A stretch of DNA of 64,000 bases from Alphaproteobacteria bacterium (GTDB taxonomy: Bacteria > Pseudomonadota > Alphaproteobacteria > RF32 > CAG-239), in NCBI GenBank assembly GCA_045537965.1, contig JAZSQL010000003.1, positions 3,056-67,055 on the forward strand, in the 5' to 3' direction. Below are positions 47,730-61,726 of the stretch, in pieces. The position numbers and the translations under genes were made by a program. Each line of letters opens with the position of its first letter. Positions within the stretch are counted from its first letter, which is position 1. The notes below the pieces were generated by a model, which ran no database searches, was not told the DNA's origin, and saw nothing but the letters and a program-made list of their open reading frames with translations.

Positions 47730-47806
47730 GGGCCCTTAGCTCAGTTGGTTAGAGCAGGCCGCTCATAACGGTCTGGTCGTTGGTTCGAGTCCATCAGGGC
47801 CCACCA
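47730..47806 (+). tRNA. tRNA with CAU anticodon, either elongator Met or lysidine-dependent Ile2 (ileX-like acceptor and anticodon arms), CCA encoded
   Basis: Hand fold: acceptor GGGCCCT/AGGGCCC, D-arm GCTC-AGTTGGTTA-GAGC, anticodon loop CTCATAA, T-loop TTCGAGT. The T-stem GTTGG/CCATC has one T-T mismatch. Confidence 0.9.
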
Positions 47807-47813
47807 AATTAAA

Positions 47814-47842
47814 CCCTTCCCTTTGAGGAAGGGCTTTTTTTT
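47814..47842 (+). terminator. Rho-independent terminator after the tRNA
   Basis: CCCTTCC (47814-47820) pairs with GGAAGGG (47827-47833), followed by an 8-nt T-run. Confidence 0.8.
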
Positions 47843-48093: not shown

Positions 48094-48132
48094 GGGAACG
48101 GTTTTATTTTTTCTATGGGTGTTCCTGTTGTG
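48094..48132 (+). promoter_or_regulatory. 39-nt conserved box, copy A (GGGAACGGTTTT-N10-TGGGTGTTCCTGTTGTG)
   Basis: 32/39 identity with 52682-52720. Lies 22 nt upstream of the small ORF that heads the recombinase operon. Confidence 0.5.
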
Positions 48133-48154: not shown

Positions 48155-48295
48155 ATGTTATCGGAATTTGAACGACTATTAGAGATTTTATCTCGCCCAG
48201 TTATAGAGCTTTTAGACGAGCAAGAAAGTGACGAATATAGCAATAAATCATTGGACTTCTTGGCTTTTCCAAGCATTCATTGTGTTAAGAAATAA
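48155..48295 (+). CDS. Small hypothetical ORF (46 aa) heading the recombinase operon
   Basis: AGGAG lies 6 nt before the ATG. Hand translation MLSEFERLLEILSRPVIELLDEQESDEYSNKSLDFLAFPSIHCVKK*. Its stop is 10 nt before the DUF2924 gene. Not in the track (<60 aa). Confidence 0.35.
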   Translation: MLSEFERLLEILSRPVIELLDEQESDEYSNKSLDFLAFPSIHCVKK

Positions 48296-48305
48296 GGAGT
48301 TGATA

Positions 48306-48710
48306 ATGATAGAATTGCCTAATTTAAATATCGAGTTGACAGAGGTTGCGAACCTTCCATTTGATAAATTAAAACATATGTATGTTTACCTTTTTAATAG
48401 GACTGTTAACTCCAGCCGACGTGAATTTTTTATATGGAGAATAACTTATCGTTTGCAAGAACTTCGGTTTGGCGGACTAGATACTAAGACTAAATCAATC
48501 CTTGAAAATTTAGATAAGAGACCAGTTAAAGAAGAAAATAATCTTCCTGTAGGTACAGAGATTACAAAAAAATATAAGGGTGAAATTTATCGAGTACGTA
48601 TTGTGGCTGGAGGCTTTGAACTTAAAGATGAGTTTTATAAATCTCTTTCAGCGGTGGCTTTTCATATAACAGGTAGAAAAATTTCAGGAAAGGAATTCTT
48701 TGGAGTGTAA
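48306..48710 (+). CDS. DUF2924-family protein (recombinase-associated)
   Basis: C-terminal GTEITKKYKGEIYRVRIVAGGFELKDEFYKSLSAVAFHITGRKISGKEFFGV matches the DUF2924 pattern seen next to large serine recombinases. Start follows AAGGAG; the track ORF starts at 48228. Confidence 0.7.
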   Translation: MIELPNLNIELTEVANLPFDKLKHMYVYLFNRTVNSSRREFFIWRITYRLQELRFGGLDTKTKSILENLDKRPVKEENNLPVGTEITKKYKGEIYRVRIVAGGFELKDEFYKSLSAVAFHITGRKISGKEFFGV

Positions 48711-48712
48711 TC

Positions 48713-50338
48713 ATGGAAGAAATTAGATGTGCAATATATACCAGAAAATCTACAGATGAAGGTTTAGAAAAAGAATTTAATACACTTGAAGCTCAACGAG
48801 AAGCTGGTGAAAGTTATATTCGAAGTCAAAAACATCAAGGTTGGACACTAATTGATGAACGCTATGATGATGGTGGTTATTCCGGTGGCAATATGAAAAG
48901 ACCGGCTTTGACCAGATTATTTGAAGATATTAAGGCCGGTAAAGTGGATATGATTGTAGTTTATAAAATTGATCGTCTTACTCGTTCATTATCAGACTTT
49001 TCTAAAATGATAGATATTTTTGATAAGCATAAATGCTCTTTTGTTTCGGTTACACAAAATTTTAATACCTCGGACAGTATGGGAAGATTGACCTTAAACA
49101 TGCTATTATCTTTTGCTCAATTTGAAAGAGAGATTGGTGCAGAACGTGTTAGAGATAAAACTGCAGCATCTAAAAAGAAAGGTATGTGGACAGGTGGTGC
49201 TGTTCCATTTGGATATAAAAACATAAATAAGAAGTTAGAAATCAATCCTGATGAAGCTGAAGCAGTAAAATTTATGTTTGAAATGTATCATAGATATAAT
49301 TCAGCGATGGCAGTTTGTAAACTTATGTACGAACATGGCTATAAAGCTTTTAGACGAGATGCAGTAAAACGAATGCTTAAAAATCCAATCTACATGGGTA
49401 AAATTAAGTATGGTCAAGAATTGTATGATGGTCAACATCAAGCAATAGTTACACCAGAGCTATTTGCATCTGTTCAACAGATAAGAGATACAAAAGATAT
49501 TCGTATAAGGGCTTGTTTATATAAAAAAAATGAAGTTGGAATTCTGCGAGGATTGTTAACATGTGCCTGTTGTAATACATTAATGACACCAACATCTTGT
49601 CAAACGAGAGGTGTGCGCCGATTTTATTACACATCAACGAAGGCTAAATATTATGGTTATCATCACTGTCGTAATGGTTCAGTTCCAGTTGCATTGATGG
49701 ATGAATGTATTTTAAAAATTGTAACGCCATTGTTTAAGGATATTAAAGTGCTTAATGGACTAATAAATAGAGTGGCGCCAGAAAAAACAGCAGAGATATA
49801 TAAAGTAATGAAAAAGCCTGAAGCTATTTTAGAAAAAATTCCTGAGCGAGATAAACTACAGCTGATGCGTTTGTTAATCACAAATATTTTAGTGAAGTAT
49901 GATACGTTAGAAATTAACTGGAGTGATTTGGCTTTAGGAATTTTACCTGATAACTATAAAGAAAAAACTGATGGATGCAAAATGGTAATAGATTTGCCTT
50001 TTACCAGACGTAATGGAGCTATGATACTCTCGATACCCGAAGATGTGGTTCAAGATGTTAGTTATAATCAAGAATTAATAAATGCGCTGGGTAAAGCCTT
50101 TAAGTATCAAAAAATCTTAAATCAAGACAAGCTTACCATACTTCAACTTGCATATCAGGAAAAAATTGATGCCGGGTATTTGGGAAGATTGATAAGATTA
50201 ACCTGTCTTGCGCCGGATATTATTAAGCGCATATTAAATGGCACACAACCACCAACCATTTATTTACAACGCCTGATAAGAGAAGAAATTCCTCCAATTT
50301 GGGAAGATCAACGTAAATTGTATAAGGTTAGGAAATAG
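48713..50338 (+). CDS. Large serine recombinase (resolvase/invertase N-domain, recombinase domain, zinc ribbon)
   Basis: CAIYTRKSTDEG (catalytic Ser context), YKIDRLTRS, and a Cys-rich region CACCN...C. 541 aa. Confidence 0.9.
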   Translation: MEEIRCAIYTRKSTDEGLEKEFNTLEAQREAGESYIRSQKHQGWTLIDERYDDGGYSGGNMKRPALTRLFEDIKAGKVDMIVVYKIDRLTRSLSDFSKMIDIFDKHKCSFVSVTQNFNTSDSMGRLTLNMLLSFAQFEREIGAERVRDKTAASKKKGMWTGGAVPFGYKNINKKLEINPDEAEAVKFMFEMYHRYNSAMAVCKLMYEHGYKAFRRDAVKRMLKNPIYMGKIKYGQELYDGQHQAIVTPELFASVQQIRDTKDIRIRACLYKKNEVGILRGLLTCACCNTLMTPTSCQTRGVRRFYYTSTKAKYYGYHHCRNGSVPVALMDECILKIVTPLFKDIKVLNGLINRVAPEKTAEIYKVMKKPEAILEKIPERDKLQLMRLLITNILVKYDTLEINWSDLALGILPDNYKEKTDGCKMVIDLPFTRRNGAMILSIPEDVVQDVSYNQELINALGKAFKYQKILNQDKLTILQLAYQEKIDAGYLGRLIRLTCLAPDIIKRILNGTQPPTIYLQRLIREEIPPIWEDQRKLYKVRK

Positions 50339-50347
50339 CTTAAAACG

Positions 50348-50378
50348 AAACCCGTCATTTTTTATGACGGGTTATTTT
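50348..50378. terminator. Hairpin terminator between convergent recombinase and lipoprotein operons
   Basis: AACCCGTCAT (50349-50358) pairs with ATGACGGGTT (50364-50373), 10 bp. T-rich tails are modest on both strands. Confidence 0.6.
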
Positions 50379-50789
50379 CTATTCAACTTCATGTGCTTCG
50401 AGAAATAGAGATTGTCCTAAAGCATTAAAAAAGTTTTGATATGCCATAGGATCTTCAATTGCTTCTAAACCTGATTGTGCATTAATTCTAACAACAATTT
50501 GTTTTGAATTAATTGCTCGGACTGAAGCTGTAAGTTTAGATGAATGAGTAAAAGAAGTACCACTAATAGTACCTAATTTTTCATCCGCTTTATCAATGAT
50601 AAAACCTAAATCTTGCATTGTTGAAATTACAGCCCTTAAAACCATAGCTTTATTATTGGTATCAAAATAACGAGATTGATAATTTCTCATTTGAACTTGG
50701 GTTTGCGACATTCCTAAAACGTCTTGATGAGTTGAAGCACAGGCAGTAAGACCTAATATCATAGTGATAGTTAATAAAATTTTCTTCAT
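50379..50789 (-). CDS. Lipoprotein, paralog of the upstream gene (136 aa)
   Basis: Lipobox GLTAC. Shares the blocks ..MQDLGFIIDKADEKLGTISGT.. and ..IEDPMAYQNFFNALGQSLFLEA.. with the 173-aa neighbour. Confidence 0.7.
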   Translation of the reverse strand: MKKILLTITMILGLTACASTHQDVLGMSQTQVQMRNYQSRYFDTNNKAMVLRAVISTMQDLGFIIDKADEKLGTISGTSFTHSSKLTASVRAINSKQIVVRINAQSGLEAIEDPMAYQNFFNALGQSLFLEAHEVE

Positions 50790-50798
50790 CCTAGTCTC

Positions 50799-51320
50799 CT
50801 ATATATTGTTCGCTGTTAAGAATACAGATTGACTTAACTTATCAAAAAAGTCTTTGTAGATAACTTCGTCTTCTATTTTTTCAATTCGAGCTTCATTCAT
50901 GTTATTCCAAATTACACGAGCAAACTCTACTCTTACATTATAACCATAATTGTTGTGGCTTTTTGTAGAAACTAAAGTTACATAAATTTTTTGATTTGTA
51001 TCGTAAACTGGTTGGGTTCCTGCAAATGCAGCTAATAAAATTAATCCGACTTTACCAGCGGTAGAACCAGCCTCTCTATCTTTACTTGCAGTAATAAGAC
51101 CTAGCTTTGTTTCACTTTCATTTAAAGTAAAACCAAGATCTTGCAAAACCTGTGCAGAAGCAATTAATAAAGCTTCTTCATTTTGTGTTTCGTATCTTCT
51201 TGTTTCTAATTGTCTTCTTGCTAAATATTGTTCATCTAGCATGTAGTAGTCACCATAATATCTAGCACATCCTGAAAGGAATAGTGATATTACAAAGACA
51301 AAACTTATTATCTTTTTCAT
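50799..51320 (-). CDS. Lipoprotein, paralog (173 aa)
   Basis: Lipobox FLSGC, and the blocks LQDLGFTLNESETKLGLITAS and IEDEVIYKDFFDKLSQSVFLTA. Confidence 0.7.
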   Translation of the reverse strand: MKKIISFVFVISLFLSGCARYYGDYYMLDEQYLARRQLETRRYETQNEEALLIASAQVLQDLGFTLNESETKLGLITASKDREAGSTAGKVGLILLAAFAGTQPVYDTNQKIYVTLVSTKSHNNYGYNVRVEFARVIWNNMNEARIEKIEDEVIYKDFFDKLSQSVFLTANNI

Positions 51321-51330
51321 ATCTTATTCC

Positions 51331-51729
51331 TTAGAAAGTAGATGTTCTATATGCAAAATCTCTAACTAGACCATTTTTATCAAATTTAACAATGATAGTT
51401 AAAGTTCTTTGATTAGAGCTAGCTTGTTTTTCTCTTCCTTCTCCATAAAATAGAAGTAACCATATACCTTTTGTTGATGAAGAAGATTGAATATTGGTAG
51501 AAACCTTGTCATAAACCCAAGTTTCTCTACGCTCTGTATCTGTTGTAACCATATTTGGTGAACCAAGAGCTTCAATGACAGCTGAAGATGTCATACCAAT
51601 TTTAATTTCTCTTTGAGCTTTAGCAACAGTCATTCTTTCTTCGTTTAAACTATAGTTAGTTGTAGAACATGCAGAAAGAAATGGTATTGTTGCAATAGCT
51701 GCGGCTAATAAAATATTTTTATATTTCAT
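51331..51729 (-). CDS. Lipoprotein with SmpA/OmlA (BamE)-like domain
   Basis: Start at MKYKNILL after GAGGGG. Lipobox FLSAC. IKIGMTSSAVIEALGSPN...ETWVYD...IIVKFDKNGLV resembles BamE-fold lipoproteins. Confidence 0.6.
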   Translation of the reverse strand: MKYKNILLAAAIATIPFLSACSTTNYSLNEERMTVAKAQREIKIGMTSSAVIEALGSPNMVTTDTERRETWVYDKVSTNIQSSSSTKGIWLLLFYGEGREKQASSNQRTLTIIVKFDKNGLVRDFAYRTSTF

Positions 51730-51750
51730 AATATACCCCTCAATAACTAA

Positions 51751-51937
51751 CAAGTCGCCCTGATGAGAGGCGACTGGAAGTTGAGAACAATACCACTAGT
51801 TATTGTGCGATATATTGACTTTAAAAGCGTATTTTATCGCCTTCCAGTCAAAAACTGGTAGGCGAAAATATCGTCTTTCGCGACGCTAGTGGATATTAGG
51901 TTCTCACACCCAAGTCAGACCATCAACTCTGACTTGC
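51751..51937. ncRNA. Candidate structured RNA or cis-regulatory leader (unclassified); strand undetermined
   Basis: ORF-free, GC-enriched stretch with eight perfect 4-10 bp complementary pairs, some mutually exclusive. Coordinates are in the findings. Confidence 0.35.
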
Positions 51938-52029: not shown

Positions 52030-52052
52030 GTTTTTACACAGGTTTTTACACA
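52030..52052 (+). repeat. Tandem direct repeat GTTTTTACACA x2 (12-nt period), possible operator
   Basis: 52030-52040 and 52042-52052 are identical. Located in the divergent intergenic region upstream of the sigma-like gene. Confidence 0.4.
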
Positions 52053-52151: not shown

Positions 52152-52191
52152 CAATAAACCTCTCATTAACATTAAAAAAAGAGGTTTATTG
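52152..52191 (+). promoter_or_regulatory. Perfect 12-bp hairpin sequestering the SD of the sigma-like gene
   Basis: CAATAAACCTCT (52152-52163) pairs with AGAGGTTTATTG (52180-52191). The 3' arm contains the AGAGG SD and ends at the ATG (52192). Confidence 0.5.
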
Positions 52192-52680
52192 ATGAAACTC
52201 AATATTTTTAGCGGACTACCTGAGTATGTCCGAATGACAATTTTATCGCAAATTAGGCGCTTATTGTCGACACCATTATTTTCATATGAAGATAAAGAAG
52301 ATTTAACCCAAGAACTATTACTGTTTTATCTCAAGCGATTTTATGATGTCCCCGATGTCGATGAGGCATTGGTGGTACATGCATTAAAACAGTATGCCAC
52401 TAATTTATTAGTTATGAGATATCGCCGGCGCGACTTTTTATATTCCTCATTAGCTGACTTCGAAGCAAATGAGGATTTTTCTTATTTAAATATATATACG
52501 CCAAATCATGATACCAAACTACTTTTTATGAAAATTTGGGAATTGGCCGAAGGTAGAGAGAAAATTGTCGTAGAGCGATTATTACAAGGCGATAGTTTAG
52601 ATAAAATATCAAGGGAGATGCATATACATAAAAAGACGATTTATAAATTTTTTGAAAAAATACGCAAAAAATTAAAATAA
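52192..52680 (+). CDS. ECF-like sigma factor / sigma-70 region-4 HTH protein (divergent)
   Basis: EDLTQELLLFYLKRF resembles region 2.1-2.2. The C-terminus EKIVVERLLQGDSLDKISREMHIHKKTIYKFFEKIRKKLK resembles a region-4 HTH. Confidence 0.5.
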   Translation: MKLNIFSGLPEYVRMTILSQIRRLLSTPLFSYEDKEDLTQELLLFYLKRFYDVPDVDEALVVHALKQYATNLLVMRYRRRDFLYSSLADFEANEDFSYLNIYTPNHDTKLLFMKIWELAEGREKIVVERLLQGDSLDKISREMHIHKKTIYKFFEKIRKKLK

Positions 52681-52681
52681 A

Positions 52682-52720
52682 GGGAACGGTTTTGATTTTT
52701 GCGTGGGTGTTTCTGTTGTC
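52682..52720 (+). promoter_or_regulatory. 39-nt conserved box, copy B (GGGAACGGTTTT-N10-TGGGTGTTTCTGTTGTC)
   Basis: Begins 2 nt after the sigma-like stop codon, 26 nt upstream of the next ORF. 32/39 identical to copy A. Confidence 0.5.
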
Positions 52721-52746: not shown

Positions 52747-52953
52747 ATGAACAACAGTAAACGCAAAACCAATGTAACAGAGGCTATTAGAGAAATTCCG
52801 GCAATGTATTTGATGGAGTTAAAGTTTTCTACGTTGAATAAATTGGAGAAGAAAATCAAACAAGAAATTGATCGTTCTACTCTTGCCTTGCGGTGGGTTC
52901 AGGGTATTAAACGCATCAAAAGAGCCAAAGATATCGGAGGATATAATGGATAA
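52747..52953 (+). CDS. Small basic hypothetical protein (68 aa)
   Basis: ATG follows AAAGGA. Overlaps the next gene by 8 nt (translational coupling). No family recognised. Confidence 0.35.
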   Translation: MNNSKRKTNVTEAIREIPAMYLMELKFSTLNKLEKKIKQEIDRSTLALRWVQGIKRIKRAKDIGGYNG

Positions 52954-53590
52954 AAAGAAAAGTTTCATTATATTTGCGCCCGAGTTTTTAGCGCTGTCAA
53001 ATCATTTGACAATAAAACAACGTGGAGAACTGATGACAGCTCTCTGTGAAATGGTTTTGTATGGTGAGCCTGTGCGTCCTGTTCCTCAATATATTGCGAA
53101 AGCCTATAATTTTATGGCAGAGAGCATTTCTGAAAACTTCAAAAAATATAATGAAGTATGTGAGAAAAGGAAAGCAATTGCAACAAAAGCTGCAAGCAAA
53201 CGCCGAGCAAATGCTGAGCAAAAGAAACACCCTAGCCAAGCAACAACCAACCTTAATGATAATGAGAATGTATATAATAATGATATAAAGAATAAAAATG
53301 AAAATGGTAAAAAAGAAAAAATAAATAAAAAAGAAATTGGTGGTTTTGCTGTTCCAACATTAGAGGACATAAAAATTTACTGTGCTATTCGTGGGTTTAG
53401 TAATGTAGATCCACAGGCTTTTTATGATTATTACGAGGCTAAGAATTGGTGCATTGGCAATATTCCGATCAAAGATTGGCAAGCAAAAATTATAAAATGG
53501 GAGAATGGTGGAGAAAATACATCTGCATTTGCAAGCATTGGTGATTGTTTGAGATTACCCAAATTAGCTCAGCAAGGAGGTGCTCAATGA
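52946..53590 (+). CDS. Hypothetical phage protein (N-terminal region reminiscent of DUF6291-type proteins)
   Basis: Start after GGAGG. LTIKQRGELMTALCEMVLYGEP...FMAESISENFKKYNEVCEKRK pattern, with a K/N-rich linker. Family name recalled from memory and unverified. Confidence 0.45.
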   Translation: MDKKKSFIIFAPEFLALSNHLTIKQRGELMTALCEMVLYGEPVRPVPQYIAKAYNFMAESISENFKKYNEVCEKRKAIATKAASKRRANAEQKKHPSQATTNLNDNENVYNNDIKNKNENGKKEKINKKEIGGFAVPTLEDIKIYCAIRGFSNVDPQAFYDYYEAKNWCIGNIPIKDWQAKIIKWENGGENTSAFASIGDCLRLPKLAQQGGAQ

Positions 53591-53961
53591 CTAAATTGAC
53601 AATTGATGACATCAAAATCCGTATAGAGAGTGCTGTTTATGTTATGCATTTGTTACCACCTGTTAAGGCTCAAGGTTATCGTTCTACTATGCCAGATATC
53701 ATTTATACTCCTCAAGAGATTATGTTAATGGATAGAAAACCGATAAAACCTAAACCAACAAGCGAGCAGATAACCCAAATGGATGAAGTGTTAGTTTGGC
53801 TTGAAGTATTAGAGCCTTGGGAACGTAAGCTTGTTTGGAAACGAGGAGCTAGAATACCTTGGAAATATTTGTGCCGAGAATTTGGGTTGTGTCGTAGCAA
53901 CATAAATAAAAAGTACGATATTGCGCTAATAAAAATTCAATACAGTATCAAAAGTGTCTAG
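53587..53961 (+). CDS. Hypothetical protein with possible C-terminal HTH
   Basis: ATGA overlap with the upstream gene, and AGGAGG SD. WKYLCREFGLCRSNINKKYDIALIKI looks HTH-like. Confidence 0.45.
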   Translation: MTKLTIDDIKIRIESAVYVMHLLPPVKAQGYRSTMPDIIYTPQEIMLMDRKPIKPKPTSEQITQMDEVLVWLEVLEPWERKLVWKRGARIPWKYLCREFGLCRSNINKKYDIALIKIQYSIKSV

Positions 53962-54016: not shown

Positions 54017-54047
54017 GGGGCGATGGTATGAACGCGCCCCTTTTTTT
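54017..54047 (+). terminator. Rho-independent terminator
   Basis: GGGGCG (54017-54022) pairs with CGCCCC (54035-54040), followed by TTTTTTT. Confidence 0.8.
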
Positions 54048-54173
54048 ATTTTTCATCTTGACATTTTTAATAAAAAGTACGAGTTTTATCCCGAAGTCAT
54101 CAATGAGGGTGGCTTCGATGTGGATTTAACCTAACTTGTCCCACAATAGAGGACTAAATAAGGAGAATTAGTT

Positions 54174-55208
54174 ATGCAAAAAACTGCAGAAGCGGTGTCT
54201 CTTGGACATCCTGATAAAATTTCCGATTACATTTCAAGTTACATTTTAGACCGTATGATTGAGCAAGATAGCTCAGTTAAATATGCTGTTGAGGTTATGA
54301 TTAAGGATAATAACGTTATTCTTGGTGGTGAAATCAAGGGAGATGTTTCTCTTGAAAATGTTAATGAGTATGTTATTTCAGCCCTGGCCGATATAGGTTA
54401 TACCAAAGATTATGCTAAAATCTGGGGTGAATATGCTATAGAACCTGATAAAATAAAGGTTACAAACTTAATTGGTCAACAGTCTGCTGATATTAACCAA
54501 GGTGTTGAGCAAGATGGTTGGGGAGACCAAGGAGTATTTGTGGGCTATGCTTGTAAAGGTGATGGGCTAATTAATTGTGAATTGTTTTTAGCGCGTAAGC
54601 TCAACAATGTGTTGTATGAGAAAGCTAAAACATCTACCAATCTTGGTTTGGATATTAAAACGCAAATTACTTTAAATGATGGTCAAATTGAAACTGCTAT
54701 TGTTGCAATACCAATGTTAAATGATGAAGATTTAACTGATTTAATAGTTGAAACATTAGGTGAAACACCTAAAAACATTATCGTTAATGGAACAGGTCGT
54801 TATACTTACCATTCATCTGTCGCAGACTGCGGCATTACAGGTCGCAAGCTCGCTTGTGATTTTTACTCTACCGCTTGTCCAATTGGCGGTGGTAGTCCAT
54901 GGACTAAAGATGGTTCAAAGGCAGACCTAACCTTAAACTTGTATGCTAGACAGTTAGCTGTAGAGAACTTAAAAGATAATGATGAGTGCTTTATTTATTT
55001 ATCTTCTTGCATTGGTAAAGCAGAACTTCCAAGTGGTTTGATTAAAACAATCAAAGATGGTAAGGAAGAAAACAGAAGTCTGTGGTGTAATCAAAAACCA
55101 AAGACTCTCATTAAATATTTAGGACTTGATAAGCCTGTGTATGCAAAATTGTGTAAGAAAGGATTACAAGCTTTGACTATAAAAGCAACGGGTCCTTCCT
55201 CCGATTAG
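54174..55208 (+). CDS. metK: S-adenosylmethionine synthetase-like protein (compact, phage-borne MetK homolog)
   Basis: MetK motifs in order: GHPDKISD, QQSADINQGV, GWGDQG, DIKTQ, ADCGITGRK, GGGSPWTKDGSKAD. 344 aa, and AAGGAG SD. Confidence 0.8.
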   Translation: MQKTAEAVSLGHPDKISDYISSYILDRMIEQDSSVKYAVEVMIKDNNVILGGEIKGDVSLENVNEYVISALADIGYTKDYAKIWGEYAIEPDKIKVTNLIGQQSADINQGVEQDGWGDQGVFVGYACKGDGLINCELFLARKLNNVLYEKAKTSTNLGLDIKTQITLNDGQIETAIVAIPMLNDEDLTDLIVETLGETPKNIIVNGTGRYTYHSSVADCGITGRKLACDFYSTACPIGGGSPWTKDGSKADLTLNLYARQLAVENLKDNDECFIYLSSCIGKAELPSGLIKTIKDGKEENRSLWCNQKPKTLIKYLGLDKPVYAKLCKKGLQALTIKATGPSSD

Positions 55209-55412: not shown

Positions 55413-56669
55413 ATGGAGTTTCAAGAGAACTATCCAGTGGATAAACTTATACCTTATGCTCGTAATTCTCGCACACATAATGATGAGCAAGTTGCTCAAA
55501 TTGTAGCTAGTATTAAAGAGTTTGGTTTTACCAATCCTATTTTGATTGGTGGTGATGATGTCATTATAGCCGGACATGGCAGACTTTTAGCTGCCCAACG
55601 TATGGGATTAAAGGAAGTTCCGGTCATCAGATTACCTCATCTGTCCGAAACTCAGCGCCGAGCATTAGTTATTGCAGATAATAAAATAGCTCTAAATGCC
55701 GGATGGGATGAAGAAATGCTAGCTCTTGAGATGAAAGAGCTTGAGGATATGGACTTTAATCTTGATATTTTAGGCTTTTCAGATGAAGAGTTAAAAGAGC
55801 TTGAAACCTTTGGTGAGCCTGAAACAGAAGGTCAATGTGAAGAAGATGCTGTTCCTGAACCTCCTGAAGAGGCTATTACAAAACGTGGTGATATTTGGAT
55901 TTTAGGTAATCATCGTCTGATCTGTGGTGACACGACAATGTATGATGATGTAAAAAAAGTAATGCAAGATGATATCGCTACTATGATTTTTACAGATCCA
56001 CCATACAATGTAAACTATGGTTCCACGATGAAAGACAGCATTAGATATCATGCCGGTTCGCTTGGTGGTCGTAAAATTATGAATGATAACTTAGGCGATG
56101 GTTTTGCTCAGTTTTTAACTGACAGCTTGTCTAATCTCATGATGTTTTGCCAAGGTTCAGCTTATGTTTGCATGAGCTCATCCGAACTCCACACATTATA
56201 TAATGCATTTATTACAGCCGGAGGTAAATGGTCAACCTTTATTATATGGGCAAAAAACACCTTTACATTAGGCCGAGCTGATTATCAGCGCCAATATGAG
56301 CCAATTTTATATGGTTGGAATGCTGAACATAAGCATTATTGGTGTGGAGATAGAGACCAAGCTGATGTGTGGGAATATAATAAACCTATTAAAAATGACC
56401 TGCATCCGACTATGAAACCAGTTGAACTGGTTGAAAGAGCTATTACTAACAGCTCTCGATCCGGAGATGTCGTGCTAGATGGTTTTGGTGGTTCGGGTTC
56501 TACTCTTATTGCTGCTGAAAAAACTGGCAGAAAAGCTCGTCTTGTGGAGTTAGATCCTAAGTTTTGTGATGTAATTGTAAGGCGTTGGGAGGAATTTACC
56601 GGTAAGAAAGCAGAACTATTGGAAGATAATGCAGAAAGTTCGGAAAATGATGTCGAATTAACTGGATAA
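55413..56669 (+). CDS. ParB-like N-terminal domain fused to N6-adenine/N4-cytosine DNA methyltransferase
   Basis: ParB/Srx block FGFTNPILIGGDDVIIAGHGRLLAA, methylase motif IV IFTDPPYNV, and SAM motif VLDGFGGSGST. Confidence 0.9.
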   Translation: MEFQENYPVDKLIPYARNSRTHNDEQVAQIVASIKEFGFTNPILIGGDDVIIAGHGRLLAAQRMGLKEVPVIRLPHLSETQRRALVIADNKIALNAGWDEEMLALEMKELEDMDFNLDILGFSDEELKELETFGEPETEGQCEEDAVPEPPEEAITKRGDIWILGNHRLICGDTTMYDDVKKVMQDDIATMIFTDPPYNVNYGSTMKDSIRYHAGSLGGRKIMNDNLGDGFAQFLTDSLSNLMMFCQGSAYVCMSSSELHTLYNAFITAGGKWSTFIIWAKNTFTLGRADYQRQYEPILYGWNAEHKHYWCGDRDQADVWEYNKPIKNDLHPTMKPVELVERAITNSSRSGDVVLDGFGGSGSTLIAAEKTGRKARLVELDPKFCDVIVRRWEEFTGKKAELLEDNAESSENDVELTG

Positions 56670-58161: not shown

Positions 58162-59319
58162 ATGAGAGTTTTAAGTCTTTTTGACGGCATTTCTTGTGGA
58201 CGTGTCGCTTTAGAACGTGCCGGAATATCGGTTGATACATACTATGCCAGTGAAATTGATAAATATGCAATAAGTATATCTCAAAAGAATTATCCGGATA
58301 TAATTAGGCTCGGAGATATTCGAGATATAGATTTTAGTCAGTTTGTCGGAAAAATTGATTTGATTATGGGAGGAAGTCCATGCCAAGACTTATCAATAGC
58401 AAAAAAGAACCGACAAGGTCTTTCTGGAGAGCGTTCGGGTTTGTTTTGGAAATTTGTGGAAGCTATAGAGACAATAAAACCTAAGTATTTTTTGTTGGAA
58501 AATGTAGCCTCTATGAGCAAAGAAAATCGAGATATTATCACACAAACTCTTGGAGTTGAACCTATCTTGATAAATTCAGCACTTGTTTCAGCTCAACAAC
58601 GCAAACGCCTGTATTGGTGCAATTGGGAGGTTACACAGCCTGAGGATAAAGGTATTTATCTGAAAGATATTTTGGAGAAAGGTTTGGCAATGACTGACAA
58701 AAGTTATTGTTTAACTGCCAGATATGATGGAGCTCATTTTCCACATGATTTTTTCTATAAGCAACGCTCTATGATAGCTGAACCTATCGGTTGTGCATTT
58801 CGCTCTAGAAATAAGCAGAAACAATTGGAAATTAGAAAAGATAAAAAATCTAATGCTTTGACATCTGTAACATCTGATAGTTCTGTGCTCATAAATATTG
58901 CGGTAAAGGTCATCAATAAATTTAAACAAATTAAGAAAATCAATCCTGATAAGAGTGACACTCTTATTGCTGGATATTATAAAGCTCCATTTAATCAACA
59001 AACCACAGGAGTTTTAACTCCTGTCCGTTTGGGTGATATTGGGCGAGATAGCCAAGGATACCGAATTTATTCAGTACGAGGCAAATCGGTATCATTAAGT
59101 GCTAATAGCGGTGGTTTTGGTGGTAAAACAGGATTATACCGAATTGATTTGCCTGATGGTGACTATTATGTCAGAAAACTTACACCTCTAGAATGTGAGC
59201 GATTGCAGACATTATCAGATGGTTACACAACAGGTGTTAGTAACACACAACGTTATAAGGCAATTGGTAACGGATGGACGGTAGATGTTATCGCCCATAT
59301 TTTTAGGTGCTTGAAATAA
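58162..59319 (+). CDS. DNA (cytosine-5)-methyltransferase
   Basis: Motif I LSLFDGISCG, motif IV GGSPCQDLS, motif VI LLENV, QRKR, and motif X AIGNGWTV. Long variable target-recognition region. Confidence 0.9.
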   Translation: MRVLSLFDGISCGRVALERAGISVDTYYASEIDKYAISISQKNYPDIIRLGDIRDIDFSQFVGKIDLIMGGSPCQDLSIAKKNRQGLSGERSGLFWKFVEAIETIKPKYFLLENVASMSKENRDIITQTLGVEPILINSALVSAQQRKRLYWCNWEVTQPEDKGIYLKDILEKGLAMTDKSYCLTARYDGAHFPHDFFYKQRSMIAEPIGCAFRSRNKQKQLEIRKDKKSNALTSVTSDSSVLINIAVKVINKFKQIKKINPDKSDTLIAGYYKAPFNQQTTGVLTPVRLGDIGRDSQGYRIYSVRGKSVSLSANSGGFGGKTGLYRIDLPDGDYYVRKLTPLECERLQTLSDGYTTGVSNTQRYKAIGNGWTVDVIAHIFRCLK

Positions 59320-59322
59320 TAA

Positions 59323-59835
59323 ATGGAAGTTTCATTAAGAAAATATGCGAATATTCGGGGTGTTTCTTTGGCCGCAGTTCAAAAAGCTGTGAAAACCAGT
59401 CGCATCCGATTAGAGAGTTCAGGGAAGATTAATGTAGAAAAAGCTAATCGTGATTGGCGAGAAAACACTAATCCTATGCAAGCAAAACCTGTTGATGTTC
59501 AGGATGTTTCTATTTCAGTTACAGATGCTCCGCTTAAAGATACTAGAGGAGCAACATATAATCAGGCTCGTGCGGCTAATGAATTTTATCGCGCGATGTT
59601 TATGAAAGAACGGCTTAAAAAGTTTAAATCGGAGGTAGTTGATAGGCAAAAAGTTAATAATCACGTGTTCCGTCTGGCTCGAGCCACCAGAGATTTAATA
59701 GCAGGTTTTCCTTCCAGACGGGCGGCGGTTATAGCAGCAAAGCTAAAAGCCGATGAACACGAAACGTTGGTGGTATTGGAAGATGAGTTCAGAGACCTCT
59801 TGTCAGAAATCGGAGATTTTGGAAAGCCATTATGA
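59323..59835 (+). CDS. Putative terminase small subunit
   Basis: Immediately upstream of the GpA-type large terminase. N-terminal HTH-like KYANIRGVSLAAVQKAVKTSRI. Confidence 0.55.
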   Translation: MEVSLRKYANIRGVSLAAVQKAVKTSRIRLESSGKINVEKANRDWRENTNPMQAKPVDVQDVSISVTDAPLKDTRGATYNQARAANEFYRAMFMKERLKKFKSEVVDRQKVNNHVFRLARATRDLIAGFPSRRAAVIAAKLKADEHETLVVLEDEFRDLLSEIGDFGKPL

Positions 59836-59863
59836 TGGAGATGATGCGGTTGGTGAGAATTGG

Positions 59864-61726
59864 ATGCATGGATTTTATCCGGATTCTTATAAAACTGTTT
59901 CAGAATGGGCTGATGAATATAGAATACTATCTAGTAAATCGGCTTCGGAAGCTGGAAAATGGCGAACTTCAAGAACTCCTTATTTGAAGGAGATTATGGA
60001 TTGCTTATCACCACATAATCCAGTGCAGAAGGTTATTTTTATGAAAGGTGCACAAATTGGAGGAACTGAGTGTGGAAATAACTGGATTGGATACGTAATT
60101 CATCACGCGCCTGGTCCAATGTTGGCTGTATCGCCAACTGTTGAAATGGCAAAACGAAATTCTCGCCAACGTATTGATCCTTTAATTGAGGATTGTCCGG
60201 CACTTAAACAGTTGGTTTGTCCAGCTAGATCTAGAGATAGTGGAAATACGATGCTATCTAAAGATTTTCCTGGAGGAGTATTGGTATTAACAGGTGCAAA
60301 CTCTGCTGTTGGATTACGTTCTATGCCAGCTCGATATTTGTTTATGGATGAAGTTGATGGATATCCTAGAGATTTGGAAGGTGAAGGCGATCCAATTCTT
60401 TTGGCAGAAAGACGTACTGCGACATTTCAAAAGCGCAAGAAAATATTTCTGGTTTCTACGCCTACAATCAAGGGATTGTCTAACATAGAGCGAGAGTTTG
60501 AGCATTCGGATAAACGCTATTTTATGTTGCCATGTCCTTTTTGTGGAGAGTATCAAGCTCTAAAATGGGAACAAATCCGTGCAGAACCTGAGGTTATGTA
60601 TGAATGTGAGCATTGTCATGAACTGATACCTGAATATCATAAAACTCAAATGCTTGAAAAAGGTAAATGGGTTGCAACAGCGGAGAGCGATGGTTTAACA
60701 GTTGGTTTTCATTTATCATCACTTTATTCTCCTGTGGGATGGTTATCTTGGAAAGAGTGTGTTGGCATTTACAAGAGAGCGCAAGAAGATACAACATTGA
60801 TGCAAGGTTTCCAAAACACTATTTTAGGTGAGACTTATGAAGAAGAGACGGATGCTCCTGAATGGCAAAGAATTTATGAAACAAGGGAGGATTATCCAAT
60901 AGGTTCAGTACCGATGGATGGTTTATTCTTAACTGCCGGAGTTGATATTCAGAAAGACCGTATTGAATGTGAGATTGTTGCTTGGGGACGTCAAAAACAG
61001 AGTTGGTCTGTCGACTATCAAGTTTTAATGGGAGATACTGCTAAACCTGAAGTTTGGAGAAAGCTCGAAGATGTTTTAATGAAAGATTATCCGCATGCAA
61101 GCGGAATAACTCTTCCTATAAGGGTTATGTGTGTGGATAGTGGTTATGCAACACAAGATGTTTATACATTTGTAAGGCAGTTTACTCAAGCCAGTTGGGG
61201 TGGAAATGGAGCAAGAGCAAATGCGCCAAGAACTGTTGTTGCGATTAAAGGTCAGAGCCGAGATACAGCAATGATACTTTCAACATCTAAGGCTGATACA
61301 AAGAAAAAAGGCTTAAAAGTTTGGAATATATCAGGTCCTGTAATTAAAACAGAATTTTATCGTTGGCTTAAAATGGAAAGGATTGGAGATGATGCTTCAC
61401 AATTTGGTCGTTGCCATTTTCCTCAGTATTCCGAAGAATATTTCAAACAAATTACTTCTGAACATCAGGTTGTTAGAATAACCAAAGGATATCCTAAACC
61501 TGTATGGGAAAAAGATCCTACAAGACGAAATGAGGCTTTAGACTGCAGAGTATATGCTCGTGTTGGTGCTGCAATTTATGGTCTTGATCGGTTTTCAGAA
61601 AATATGTGGGTAGAACTTGAAGCTCAAATTCCTGTTGCACAAGTACAAGAAAAACAAGAATTTAAGCGCAAGAAACCTAAATTACAACAATATCAAACAA
61701 TGAGGATTGATGATCCATGGCTATGA
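59864..61726 (+). CDS. Terminase large subunit, lambda GpA family (start uncertain: 59753, 59783 or 59864)
   Basis: GpA-like N-terminus (TVSEWADEYRILSSKSASEAGKWRTSRTPYLKEIMD), Walker-like KGAQIGGTE, and a long conserved C-terminal nuclease region. Confidence 0.85.
   Translation: MHGFYPDSYKTVSEWADEYRILSSKSASEAGKWRTSRTPYLKEIMDCLSPHNPVQKVIFMKGAQIGGTECGNNWIGYVIHHAPGPMLAVSPTVEMAKRNSRQRIDPLIEDCPALKQLVCPARSRDSGNTMLSKDFPGGVLVLTGANSAVGLRSMPARYLFMDEVDGYPRDLEGEGDPILLAERRTATFQKRKKIFLVSTPTIKGLSNIEREFEHSDKRYFMLPCPFCGEYQALKWEQIRAEPEVMYECEHCHELIPEYHKTQMLEKGKWVATAESDGLTVGFHLSSLYSPVGWLSWKECVGIYKRAQEDTTLMQGFQNTILGETYEEETDAPEWQRIYETREDYPIGSVPMDGLFLTAGVDIQKDRIECEIVAWGRQKQSWSVDYQVLMGDTAKPEVWRKLEDVLMKDYPHASGITLPIRVMCVDSGYATQDVYTFVRQFTQASWGGNGARANAPRTVVAIKGQSRDTAMILSTSKADTKKKGLKVWNISGPVIKTEFYRWLKMERIGDDASQFGRCHFPQYSEEYFKQITSEHQVVRITKGYPKPVWEKDPTRRNEALDCRVYARVGAAIYGLDRFSENMWVELEAQIPVAQVQEKQEFKRKKPKLQQYQTMRIDDPWL

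Follow-up and report, generated by a model that had tools for sequence, protein, structure and literature searches.

A divergent, probable ECF-type sigma factor encoded by a prophage, and two putative cognate promoters that bracket its gene

The stretch of DNA analysed here (the ‘window’; 64,000 nucleotides of contig JAZSQL010000003.1, positions 3,056 to 67,055 of the forward strand, from the alphaproteobacterial assembly GCA_045537965.1, GTDB lineage RF32; CAG-239) carries a prophage of an uncultured gut or rumen alphaproteobacterium. Working along the relevant part of this prophage in the direction of transcription, with all genes on the + strand, we first encounter a 39-nt box at 48094–48132, GGGAACGGTTTTATTTTTTCTATGGGTGTTCCTGTTGTG, hereafter P1, consisting of a -35-like hexamer (48094–48099), a 17-nt T-rich spacer and a -10-like GGGTGTTC (48117–48124). 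This is followed by a small ORF of unassigned function, orf46 (48155–48295), which has no Pfam hit and for which a role as recombination directionality factor is only a guess; a small ORF of 46–57 aa holds the same position in five of the related loci (numbered here with the prefix L), L032 and L106–L109. Next come a DUF2924 gene (48306–48710; PF11149, E = 1.2e-28), the usual partner of large serine recombinases, and the large serine recombinase itself (48713–50338), the prophage integrase, which matches the Pfam models Resolvase, Recombinase and Zn_ribbon_recom as well as PHROG 95 ‘integrase’ (E = 9e-105). A bidirectional terminator hairpin at 50349–50373 (-15.6 kcal/mol, z = -5.7) closes this operon.

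Further downstream lies a tandem repeat of TTTTTACACA (52031–52052; two copies, period 12) that looks like an operator, and that is conserved as two copies of TTTT(A/G)CACA in all lineages aligned. Below this, a leader hairpin at 52152–52191 contains in its 3′ arm the Shine-Dalgarno sequence (AGAGG, 52180–52184) of the gene that follows; its folding energy is -15.6 kcal/mol (z = -4.7, with 0 of 200 shuffles as stable), and it is conserved in 14 loci, with one compensatory pair. The gene itself, at 52192–52680, encodes 162 aa from an ATG located 7 nt after the Shine-Dalgarno sequence; the 163 aa given in the preliminary description would require use of the TTG at 52189, whereas all homologues start MK/MN-L. 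A single base (A) separates the stop codon from a second box, P2 (GGGAACGGTTTTGATTTTTGCGTGGGTGTTTCTGTTGTC; 52682–52720), in which GGAAC ends at 52687 and TGGGTGTT starts at 52704, leaving 16 nt between them; counted instead from the -35-like hexamer GGGAAC (52682–52687) to GGGTGTT, the T-rich spacer is 17 nt, with the -10-like GGGTGTTT occupying 52705–52712.

Three overlapping ORFs follow P2. The first, orf68 (52747–52953), encodes a small helical protein without any family hit, conserved at 66–71 aa in all 15 loci examined; that it might be an anti-sigma factor is only a guess, and no known anti-sigma domain was found. The second (52946–53590) encodes a DUF6291-domain protein possibly linked to replication (PF19808, E = 3e-9; PHROG 15768; with a weak match to PHROG 6451 ‘primosomal protein’), and the third (53587–53961) a DUF6362 protein that is probably an HTH DNA-binding regulator (PF19889, E = 4e-25), weak relatives of which in Rhodobacter phages are annotated ‘helix-turn-helix DNA binding domain protein’. 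A speculative connection between this last protein and the GafA/GafZ regulators of gene transfer agents found no support in the papers we consulted, which do not mention the domain. The operon ends at an intrinsic terminator (54017–54052), a G+C-rich hairpin GGGGCG..CGCCCC (54017–54040) followed by a T-run, in a stretch that folds at -20.8 kcal/mol.

The preliminary description had reported P2 alone, as a GGAAC-containing box directly after the gene of an ECF-like sigma factor and ahead of a three-gene operon ending at a strong terminator; this observation is confirmed, with the box lying exactly where it had been placed. GGAAC plus TGGGT alone in one sequence would be at chance level, but the whole box is conserved after the sigma stop codon in all 31 related loci first retrieved, and in all 40 or so related loci that keep the downstream operon. 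The copy at P1, 32 of 39 bases identical to P2, had been missed there; a search with 30 nt of the box at up to 3 mismatches likewise returned only P2 itself, and a GGAAC-N17-TGGGT search, one base off the true spacing, returned only chance hits, P1 emerging once the -10-like core was used as the query. An equivalent copy lies upstream of the recombinase operon in the related loci where that region is on the contig. A 40-nt weight matrix trained only on other lineages scores P2 and P1 at 53.3 and 50.3 bits respectively, whilst the next best site in the window, on both strands, scores 2.9 bits and the maximum in 20 shuffles was 6.1 bits. No further weak sites were found in the window or in L032, and a scan of IMG/VR finds at most two matches in each 27–50 kb contig of this phage family, together with single matches on unrelated contigs.

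The protein encoded between the two boxes is a highly divergent two-domain member of the sigma-70 family, of the ECF type (group 4), with a sigma2-like domain at about residues 10–90, a linker at about 85–104 and a sigma4 HTH at about 106–161. It aligns end to end with sigma models, although below their cut-offs: TIGR02937 sigma70-ECF at residues 22–162 against model positions 19–162 of 165 (E = 1.3e-4; 21.6 bits against a cut-off of 42.9), three other ECF models, and PHROG 1740 ‘RNA polymerase sigma factor’ (E = 1.7e-9). The sequence has a region-2.1/2.2-like EDLxQELLLFYL stretch and a region-2.4-like NLLxxRYRRR stretch. It nevertheless falls below every curated HMM cut-off, with Sigma70_r4_2 (PF08281) scoring 14.7 bits against 25.7 and GerE (PF00196) 23.1 against 23.5; of 23 family members, 12 touch Pfam Sigma70_ECF and 13 touch Sigma70_r4_2, but none hits Sigma70_r2 (PF04542). 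The link to region 2 is therefore only transitive: a profile search of 1.84 billion representative proteins gives full-length distant hits, 19 of 30 of which match Sigma70_r2 (three of them, P0163, P0167 and P0171, passing its gathering score), and hhalign of the family profile against a profile of these distant relatives gives a probability of 99.85% (E = 1.5e-30) over 157 columns; a statistic that is partly circular, as the second profile was chosen from hits to the first.

In agreement with this assignment, the AF2 model of the protein has two helical domains—helices at 11–25, 32–50 and 58–89, and four C-terminal helices—joined by a disordered stretch at 85–104, in line with the sigma2–linker–sigma4 architecture of about 160–200 aa, without regions 1.1 or 3, expected of group-4 factors. 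Nearly all of its top 20 Foldseek matches in the PDB are ECF sigma factors, including SigH, RpoE, SigL, AlgU, SigW and BldN, with probability up to 0.96 but with weak E-values (0.02–1). The N-terminal domain alone is confidently modelled (pLDDT 87), but its matches to SigH sigma2 reach only TM 0.53–0.55 at an E-value of about 1.6, which is not significant, mixed with unrelated helical bundles; a three-helix bundle being a common fold.

We also considered that the protein might instead be a LuxR/GerE-type transcription activator with an unrelated helical N-terminal domain, binding the upstream hexamer and recruiting the holoenzyme of host sigma-70, or of another host sigma, to P1 and P2. The best single Pfam hit is indeed GerE (E = 5.8e-5, just under its cut-off), which 21 of 23 members touch; precomputed Pfam annotations list PF00196 for many relatives, NCBI names some members ‘LuxR C-terminal-related transcriptional regulator’, and a profile search against PDB sequences finds only LuxR/NarL-type HTH domains, at E-values of 0.05 or worse. 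Sigma region 4 and GerE HTH domains are homologous, however, so these hits do not discriminate between the two readings, whereas the full-length alignments, N-terminal half included, go to ECF sigma models and to relatives that match Sigma70_r2. LuxR/GerE-type activators usually have a receiver or ligand-binding N-terminal domain; that of the present protein aligns to sigma region 2 relatives. Furthermore, neither a TAnnnT-type -10 nor a sigma-70-like promoter was called on the + strand at either box, the site is asymmetric, unlike the dyad-symmetric boxes bound by LuxR-type dimers, and the downstream half of the box is as conserved as the hexamer and co-varies with the N-terminal domain (see below); something an activator model does not predict. 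We regard this alternative as unlikely, though it is the strongest of those considered.

The anatomy of the boxes is promoter-like. Both lie on the same strand as the genes, 16–45 nt before start codons, and in lineage B of the related phages P1 leaves only about 16 nt between GGGTGTTCC and the ATG, with GGAGG in between, such that a start site must lie right after the box. A hairpin, terminator or RNA element at P2 is rejected: the box folds at only -6.4 kcal/mol (z = +1.25), has no Rfam match, and lineages with GGCTCC show no compensating change in GTTCC. Public RNA runs yielded only low-depth assembled contigs (X25–X28), which show that the operon is present in RNA-derived libraries but are too sparse to provide 5′ ends; a peak of depth at 47730–47769 is only the conserved tRNA-Met.

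Further evidence comes from comparison across related phages, in which the two halves of the box change in step with the two predicted DNA-reading domains of the protein. In most relatives the hexamer is GGAAAC, GGCTCC, CGAAC or TGTGAC and not the GGAAC emphasised in the preliminary description. An HTH of the type ..KKTIY(K/G)FFEK goes with GG(G/A)AAC; ..HKRV(I/V)RR(L/F) goes with GGC(T/C)CC (in L010, L016, L030, L032, L106 and L107 at both promoters, and at P2 in L013 and L014); ..SKETIYKFF goes with CGAAC; and ..HKQIIYRF goes with TGTGAC. Wherever P1 and P2 are both on the contig they carry the same hexamer class, apart from single-base differences such as GGCCCC for GGCTCC, although they lie 3–4.6 kb apart. 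The -10-like element tracks the region-2.4-like helix instead: L017–L020, with a KETIY HTH and an RKRKRTR sigma2 helix, have CGAAC with GGGAATGTT, whereas L109, with a KETIY HTH and an RYRRRD sigma2 helix, has CGAAC with GGGTGTTC at both promoters. The -10 half thus tracks domain 2 and the -35 half domain 4, matching established ECF biology and engineered chimeras (PMC3817407). Saying this, the sigma4-coding sequence and P2 are adjacent, so part of the covariation could be linkage, with P1 being the informative site. One locus, L108, pairs a KETIY-type sigma with a GGGAAC P1, but is a decayed hybrid with a split recombinase and no P2 operon. A chimeric protein, P0010 of L032, is a less independent test than it might appear, as the whole phage is L030-like (98% identity over the recombinase region) and only the N-terminal half of its sigma gene is window-like; it shows that swapping sigma2 leaves the -35 class unchanged, and nothing more.

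Two further alternatives bear on these patterns. The boxes are direct repeats flanking a 4.6 kb recombinase–sigma cassette, are unusually long and well conserved, and in lineages A, B and E contain an imperfect dyad, GGAAC...GTTCC; they could be binding or recombination sites for another phage protein, such as the serine recombinase, the DUF2924 protein or the DUF6362 HTH protein, their match to the sigma HTH arising through linkage and gene conversion. All genes in a lineage co-vary, so attributing the covariation to sigma rests on correlation. In lineages C and D, however, the left arm is GGCTCC while the right arm stays GTTCC, so that the dyad is not maintained, which also argues against a symmetric dimer site; the two halves assort independently with the two sigma domains; both boxes sit immediately upstream of start codons in the orientation of the genes; and no contig or joint in the RNA runs examined lacks the 4.6 kb segment, albeit at low coverage. 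We consider this reading improbable. Even less likely, in our view, is recognition of the boxes by a host ECF sigma factor, with another role for the phage protein. There is a precedent, in that a conserved 40-bp region upstream of int in Staphylococcus aureus prophages is a promoter used by host sigma-H (PMC2869324), and GGAAC-type -35 elements are common to many ECF groups, but the hexamer differs between closely related phages in step with the phage protein's own recognition helix, and these phages are found in similar gut and rumen Alphaproteobacteria.

Taken together, the interpretation offered in the preliminary description, a phage sigma factor with its cognate promoter, is supported on comparative evidence, not experiments, although the circuit is not confined to the one box. 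In the model we favour (probability of roughly 0.72), the factor binds host core RNA polymerase and directs it to two phage promoters sharing a 40-nt bipartite motif, with the sigma4 HTH reading the hexamer and the strongly conserved sigma2-like domain reading GGGTGTTC. P1 would drive orf46, the DUF2924 gene and the recombinase, and P2 would drive orf68, the DUF6291 gene and the DUF6362 gene; the factor would therefore couple expression of the integration/excision module with an early regulatory or replication operon, its own gene appearing to be gated by the operator-like repeat and by the hairpin that buries its ribosome-binding site. Our analysis shows the family relationship, the two-domain architecture, the conservation, copy number and position of the motif, and its covariation with the protein, whereas binding to core RNA polymerase, promoter-specific initiation, a transcription start about 6–8 nt after GGGTGTT, and any role in induction or in the establishment of lysogeny are inferred. 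The whole 40 nt, spacer included, is more conserved than in typical ECF promoters, and there are only two sites; a second protein, or gene conversion between the two copies, could contribute to this.

Compared with group-4 sigma factors such as E. coli sigma-E and M. tuberculosis SigH/SigL, the protein has the same layout of two domains (sigma2-like and sigma4) joined by a flexible linker within about 160–190 aa, and the promoters a GGAAC-type -35 element with about 16–17 nt to a short G/T-rich -10 element, domain 2 reading the -10 and domain 4 the -35 in those systems (PMC3817407). It differs in failing the curated HMM thresholds, in its -10-like GGGTGTTC and conserved T-rich spacer, in that no recognisable anti-sigma gene was found (a co-encoded anti-sigma factor being common in the family but not universal), in being encoded by a prophage, and in that the putative cognate promoter lies after the gene, not before it, so that autoregulation, if any, would have to come from read-through from P1. 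Phage- or prophage-encoded factors such as B. subtilis PBSX Xpf, SPO1 gp28 and gp33/34, T4 gp55 and phiEco32 gp36 likewise redirect host core RNA polymerase to phage-specific promoters, but switch on middle or late gene sets with many promoters; here only two are detectable per 27–50 kb phage, they bracket the sigma gene, and one is placed to drive the integrase operon. At the S. aureus int promoter, a conserved region of about 40 bp with no sigma-A-type promoter is likewise read by an alternative sigma factor, and so modulates integration and excision, but that factor is host-encoded (PMC2869324), whereas here it is carried by the phage, diversifies together with its promoters, and the integrase is a large serine recombinase preceded by a DUF2924 gene. 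The combination seen in L109 against L017–L020 and lineage B shows the same pattern as the modular specificity of engineered chimeric sigma factors, which combine domain 2 of one factor with domain 4 of another, activate the matching chimeric -10/-35 promoters and are orthogonal to the parental promoters (Rhodius et al. 2013, PMC3817407), although ours are natural recombinants inferred from sequence. A functional analogy can be drawn with lambda CII, a phage-encoded regulator that turns on integrase transcription from pI together with another regulatory operon from pRE; CII is, however, an activator of the sigma-70 holoenzyme that binds a direct repeat straddling the -35 element, and not a sigma factor.

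A more far-reaching possibility, which we put forward only tentatively, is that this family of gut and rumen prophages runs its integration/early-gene decision on a minimal switch of one phage sigma factor and just two promoters bracketing its gene, diversified into at least four naturally orthogonal sigma4/-35 specificity classes (GGRAAC, GGCTCC, CGAAC, TGTGAC) and two sigma2/-10 classes that recombine modularly between phages, in effect forming sigma-based immunity or compatibility groups. In the lineages that lack the cargo genes, read-through from P1 into the sigma gene would give positive feedback, with the hairpin and the operator-like repeat setting the threshold for switching.

The family also illustrates that real sigma-70 relatives can lie below every curated HMM threshold, and so are annotated inconsistently as sigma factors, as LuxR-type regulators, or not at all. 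As far as we could find, sigma control of a prophage integrase has so far been described only with a host sigma factor; if confirmed, the present case would be a phage-borne sigma factor that controls the phage's own serine integrase operon together with an early operon. The compact factors (about 160 aa) of this family, and their 40-nt promoters, whose -35 and -10 specificities have been swapped modularly by evolution, are candidate orthogonal parts for synthetic circuits and bear on how ECF specificity evolves.

The open reading frame at 52192-52680 (+ strand) encodes a protein of 162 amino acids from its ATG; the stop codon ends at 52680 and, one base later, a 39-nt box occupies 52682-52720. 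Three overlapping ORFs then follow (52747-52953, 52946-53590 and 53587-53961), ending at a G+C-rich hairpin with a T-run at 54017-54052. The observation made in the preliminary description is therefore accurate apart from off-by-one details: the protein has 162 rather than 163 amino acids, the gap between stop codon and box is 1 nt rather than 2 nt, and 16 nt rather than about 17 nt lie between GGAAC and TGGGTGTT. Its interpretation, that a phage sigma factor is here paired with a cognate promoter, is supported by our analysis, albeit on comparative evidence.

The region from 47.8 kb to the end of the window is the left part of a prophage. An intact tRNA-Met (47730-47806, CAT anticodon) and a terminator, together spanning 47730-47833, lie about 260 nt to the left of the first of the two boxes described below, such that the left junction of the prophage must lie between 47834 and 48090; in other lineages the neighbouring host genes differ (cold-shock protein, LpxB/LpxI, SHMT). 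Working from left to right, we then find orf46, a DUF2924 gene and a large serine recombinase (48155-50338), followed on the opposite strand by three lipoprotein genes (50379-51753), each with a signal peptide and a lipobox-type cysteine, and one of them with a BamE-like domain. The latter are inserted between the recombinase and sigma genes only in the window, L001 and L108 lineage (handles with the prefix L denote related loci), whereas L032 has two different small genes at this point and most lineages have none; they are probably cargo (‘moron’) genes expressed from the prophage. After the sigma-like gene and the three-gene operon come, in a row, a diverged MetK-like SAM synthetase (54174-55208), a ParB-N6/N4 methyltransferase fusion (55413-56669) and a C5 cytosine methyltransferase (58162-59319)—a methylation and SAM-supply module that is conserved in the related loci and plausibly directed against host restriction—and then an ORF at 59753-61726, in the position of the GpA-type large terminase called in L032, and a lambda-family portal gene. 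One relative, L106, carries an HTH_3 plus HipA-like toxin-antitoxin pair (L106:8023-9480) inserted between the MetK-like and ParB-methyltransferase genes. Relatives come from uncultured, low-G+C gut and rumen Alphaproteobacteria and from IMG/VR viral contigs; the only GenBank phage record with this gene is an unannotated 6 kb metagenomic fragment.

Direct family searches with the protein all fall below threshold. Pfam gives only C-terminal HTH hits (GerE, 23.1 bits against a cut-off of 23.5; Sigma70_r4_2, 14.7 against 25.7) and nothing for Sigma70_r2; indeed, none of 23 family members hits Sigma70_r2, although 12 touch Sigma70_ECF. The weak hits are nevertheless end to end, with TIGR02937 sigma70-ECF matching residues 22-162 to model positions 19-162 of 165 (E = 1.3e-4), three other ECF models behaving likewise, and PHROG 1740 ‘RNA polymerase sigma factor’ matching residues 18-162 at E = 1.7e-9. 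Distant homology supports the assignment: a profile of 23 homologues, searched against 1.84 billion representative proteins, found 142 proteins, many of them 160-200 amino acids long and matched over their whole length; of 30 such distant hits, 19 match Pfam Sigma70_r2, 11 match Sigma70_r4_2 and 10 match Sigma70_ECF. Alignment of the family against them with hhalign gives a probability of 99.85% (E = 1.5e-30) over 157 columns, a statistic that is partly circular as the set was chosen from hits to the same profile.

The predicted structure is consistent with this assignment, but not decisive. The AF2 model (pLDDT 74.6) has three N-terminal helices, a disordered linker at residues 85-104 and a four-helix C-terminal HTH domain. 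Nearly all of its top 20 Foldseek PDB matches are ECF sigma factors (SigH, RpoE, SigL, AlgU, SigW and BldN), with probability up to 0.96 but E-values of only 0.02-1; whilst the N-terminal domain modelled alone (pLDDT 87) matches the sigma2 domain of SigH at a TM of 0.53-0.55 and E of about 1.6, which is not significant by itself. We conclude that this is a bona fide but very divergent member of the ECF-type sigma-70 family, with sequence relationship as the main support and the structure merely consistent with it. NCBI already names some members ‘sigma-70 family RNA polymerase sigma factor’ and others ‘LuxR C-terminal-related transcriptional regulator’.

To ask whether the box itself is real, we extracted the DNA after the sigma stop codon in the 31 related loci first collected. 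The proteins there are only 47-94% identical to that of the window, yet every locus has the same element: a hexamer, a T-rich spacer, GGGTGTTC-CTGTTG, and then the ribosome-binding site of the next gene. In L015, the C-terminal third of the sigma gene is frameshifted (L015:6001-6483; protein P0088) although both boxes are intact, indicating either a pseudogene or an assembly error. Searching with the ‘-10-like’ core revealed a second copy of the box in the window at 48094-48132, GGGAACGGTTTTATTTTTTCTATGGGTGTTCCTGTTGTG, which is identical to the first at 32 of 39 bases and lies upstream of orf46, the DUF2924 gene and the recombinase. The same pair—P1 before the recombinase operon and P2 after the sigma gene—is present in related loci wherever the contig reaches far enough. 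A 40-nt weight matrix trained on 28 boxes, none of them from the lineage of the window, scores the two window sites at 53.3 and 50.3 bits; the next best site in 64 kb on both strands scores 2.9 bits, and 20 shuffles reach at most 6.1 bits. An exact-pattern scan of 2.9 million IMG/VR contigs finds at most two matches in each 27-50 kb contig of this phage family, and single matches on unrelated contigs.

Position and form are in keeping with a promoter. Both boxes face the downstream genes and, in lineage B of the related loci, P1 leaves only about 16 nt, containing GGAGG, between GGGTGTTCC and the ATG; transcription would therefore have to begin right after the box. No sigma-70-type promoter is called on the + strand at either site, and the box has neither RNA structure (z = +1.25) nor an Rfam match. 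No start site could be mapped from RNA-derived contigs of bovine gut libraries, which cover the 5' end of the sigma gene and operon genes 2 and 3, but only at a depth of 2-4. In lineage B and some other lineages (L002:3511-3552, and the same place in L003, L010, L015, L022 and L028), the -10-like GGGTGTTCC of P2 is also the exact or near-exact inverted repeat of GGAACACCC, which overlaps the ribosome-binding site of orf68, the first gene after P2; read-through transcripts from the sigma gene could mask that site, whilst transcripts started at P2 would lack the 5' arm. This pairing is not present in the window itself (GGAATAAAA).

The case for assigning the box to this particular protein rests on covariation, the hexamer differing between lineages in step with the recognition helix of the C-terminal HTH. 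A helix of the form ..KKTIY(K/G)FFEK goes with GG(G/A)AAC (window, L001-L009, L021-L031); ..HKRV(I/V)RR(L/F) with GGC(T/C)CC (L010, L013, L014, L016, L030, L032, L106, L107); ..SKETIYKFF with CGAAC (L017-L020, L109); and ..HKQIIYRF with TGTGAC (L011, L012, L111). Wherever both are on the contig, P1 and P2 of one phage carry the same hexamer class (apart from single-base differences such as GGCCCC for GGCTCC), although they lie 3-4.6 kb apart. The hexamers of L106, L107 and L109 were predicted from their protein sequences before the DNA was examined, and all three predictions were correct. The -10-like half, by contrast, is constant wherever the N-terminal domain has the ...RYRRRD helix, and changes to GGGAATGTT in L017-L020, whose sigma2 helix reads RKRKRTR; L109, which combines the KETIY HTH with an RYRRRD-type sigma2, has CGAAC plus GGGTGTTC at both promoters. 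The two halves of the box therefore assort independently with the two domains, as is established for ECF sigma factors, where domain 4 reads the -35 element and domain 2 the -10 element, and where engineered chimeras read chimeric promoters (PMC3817407). This also argues against a symmetric dimer site: GGAAC...GTTCC looks like a dyad in some lineages, but GGCTCC lineages keep GTTCC.

Saying this, sigma4 and P2 are adjacent, so that linkage explains part of the P2 correlation; P1 is the informative site, and gene conversion between the two boxes could keep them alike. The chimera L032 is overall L030-like, with only the N-terminal half of its sigma gene being window-like, and shows only that swapping sigma2 does not change the -35 class. 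L108 is a mismatch, pairing a KETIY-type sigma with a GGGAAC P1, but its recombinase is split into two ORFs and its P2 operon is replaced, giving it the appearance of a decayed hybrid. It belongs to a sub-family of the sigma gene (proteins P0056 and P0093; L108:969-5666 and L110:424-2391) that sits in a different context, followed by three CGGGCTGGTCA repeats, a gene of 167-169 amino acids and a small resolvase; L108 is a hybrid of this element with a window-type left end. The spacer is, in addition, unusually conserved and the regulon tiny. Taking these points together, we place the probability of the sigma-plus-cognate-promoter model at roughly 0.7.

Phage-encoded sigma factors and ECF promoters are both well known. 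What appears to be new is a family so divergent that curated models miss it; a proposed regulon of just two promoters that bracket the sigma gene; the proposed control of the phage's own serine-integrase operon by a phage-borne sigma factor, where the closest precedent we found uses host sigma-H in S. aureus (PMC2869324); and the natural modular diversification of -35/sigma4 and -10/sigma2 pairs.

The sigma gene appears to have its own controls. A tandem direct repeat of TTTTTACACA (52031-52052; two copies, period 12) lies about 150 nt upstream of its ATG, is conserved as two copies of TTTT(A/G)CACA in every lineage aligned, and in loci without cargo genes lies directly after the recombinase stop codon; it looks like an operator for an unidentified regulator of the sigma gene. 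Below this, a conserved 12-bp hairpin (52152-52191; CAAUAAACCUCU / AGAGGUUUAUUG) buries the Shine-Dalgarno sequence of the gene in its 3' arm, which ends at the ATG (-15.6 kcal/mol, z = -4.7), with one compensatory pair and several G-U changes across 14 loci; this arrangement suggests translational gating of the sigma factor. In lineages without the lipoprotein cargo the sigma gene follows the recombinase directly on the same strand, and read-through from P1 could then give positive feedback. Whilst the family relationship, the conservation and placement of the two boxes and their covariation with the protein come directly from the sequence comparisons, this feedback step, as well as the binding of core polymerase and promoter-specific initiation, is inferred. 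In the mechanism we propose, the phage sigma factor would bind host core polymerase and fire P1 (orf46, DUF2924, serine recombinase) and P2 (orf68, DUF6291, DUF6362), thus coupling, whether at induction or at the establishment of lysogeny, the integration/excision module of the phage to an early regulatory or replication operon.
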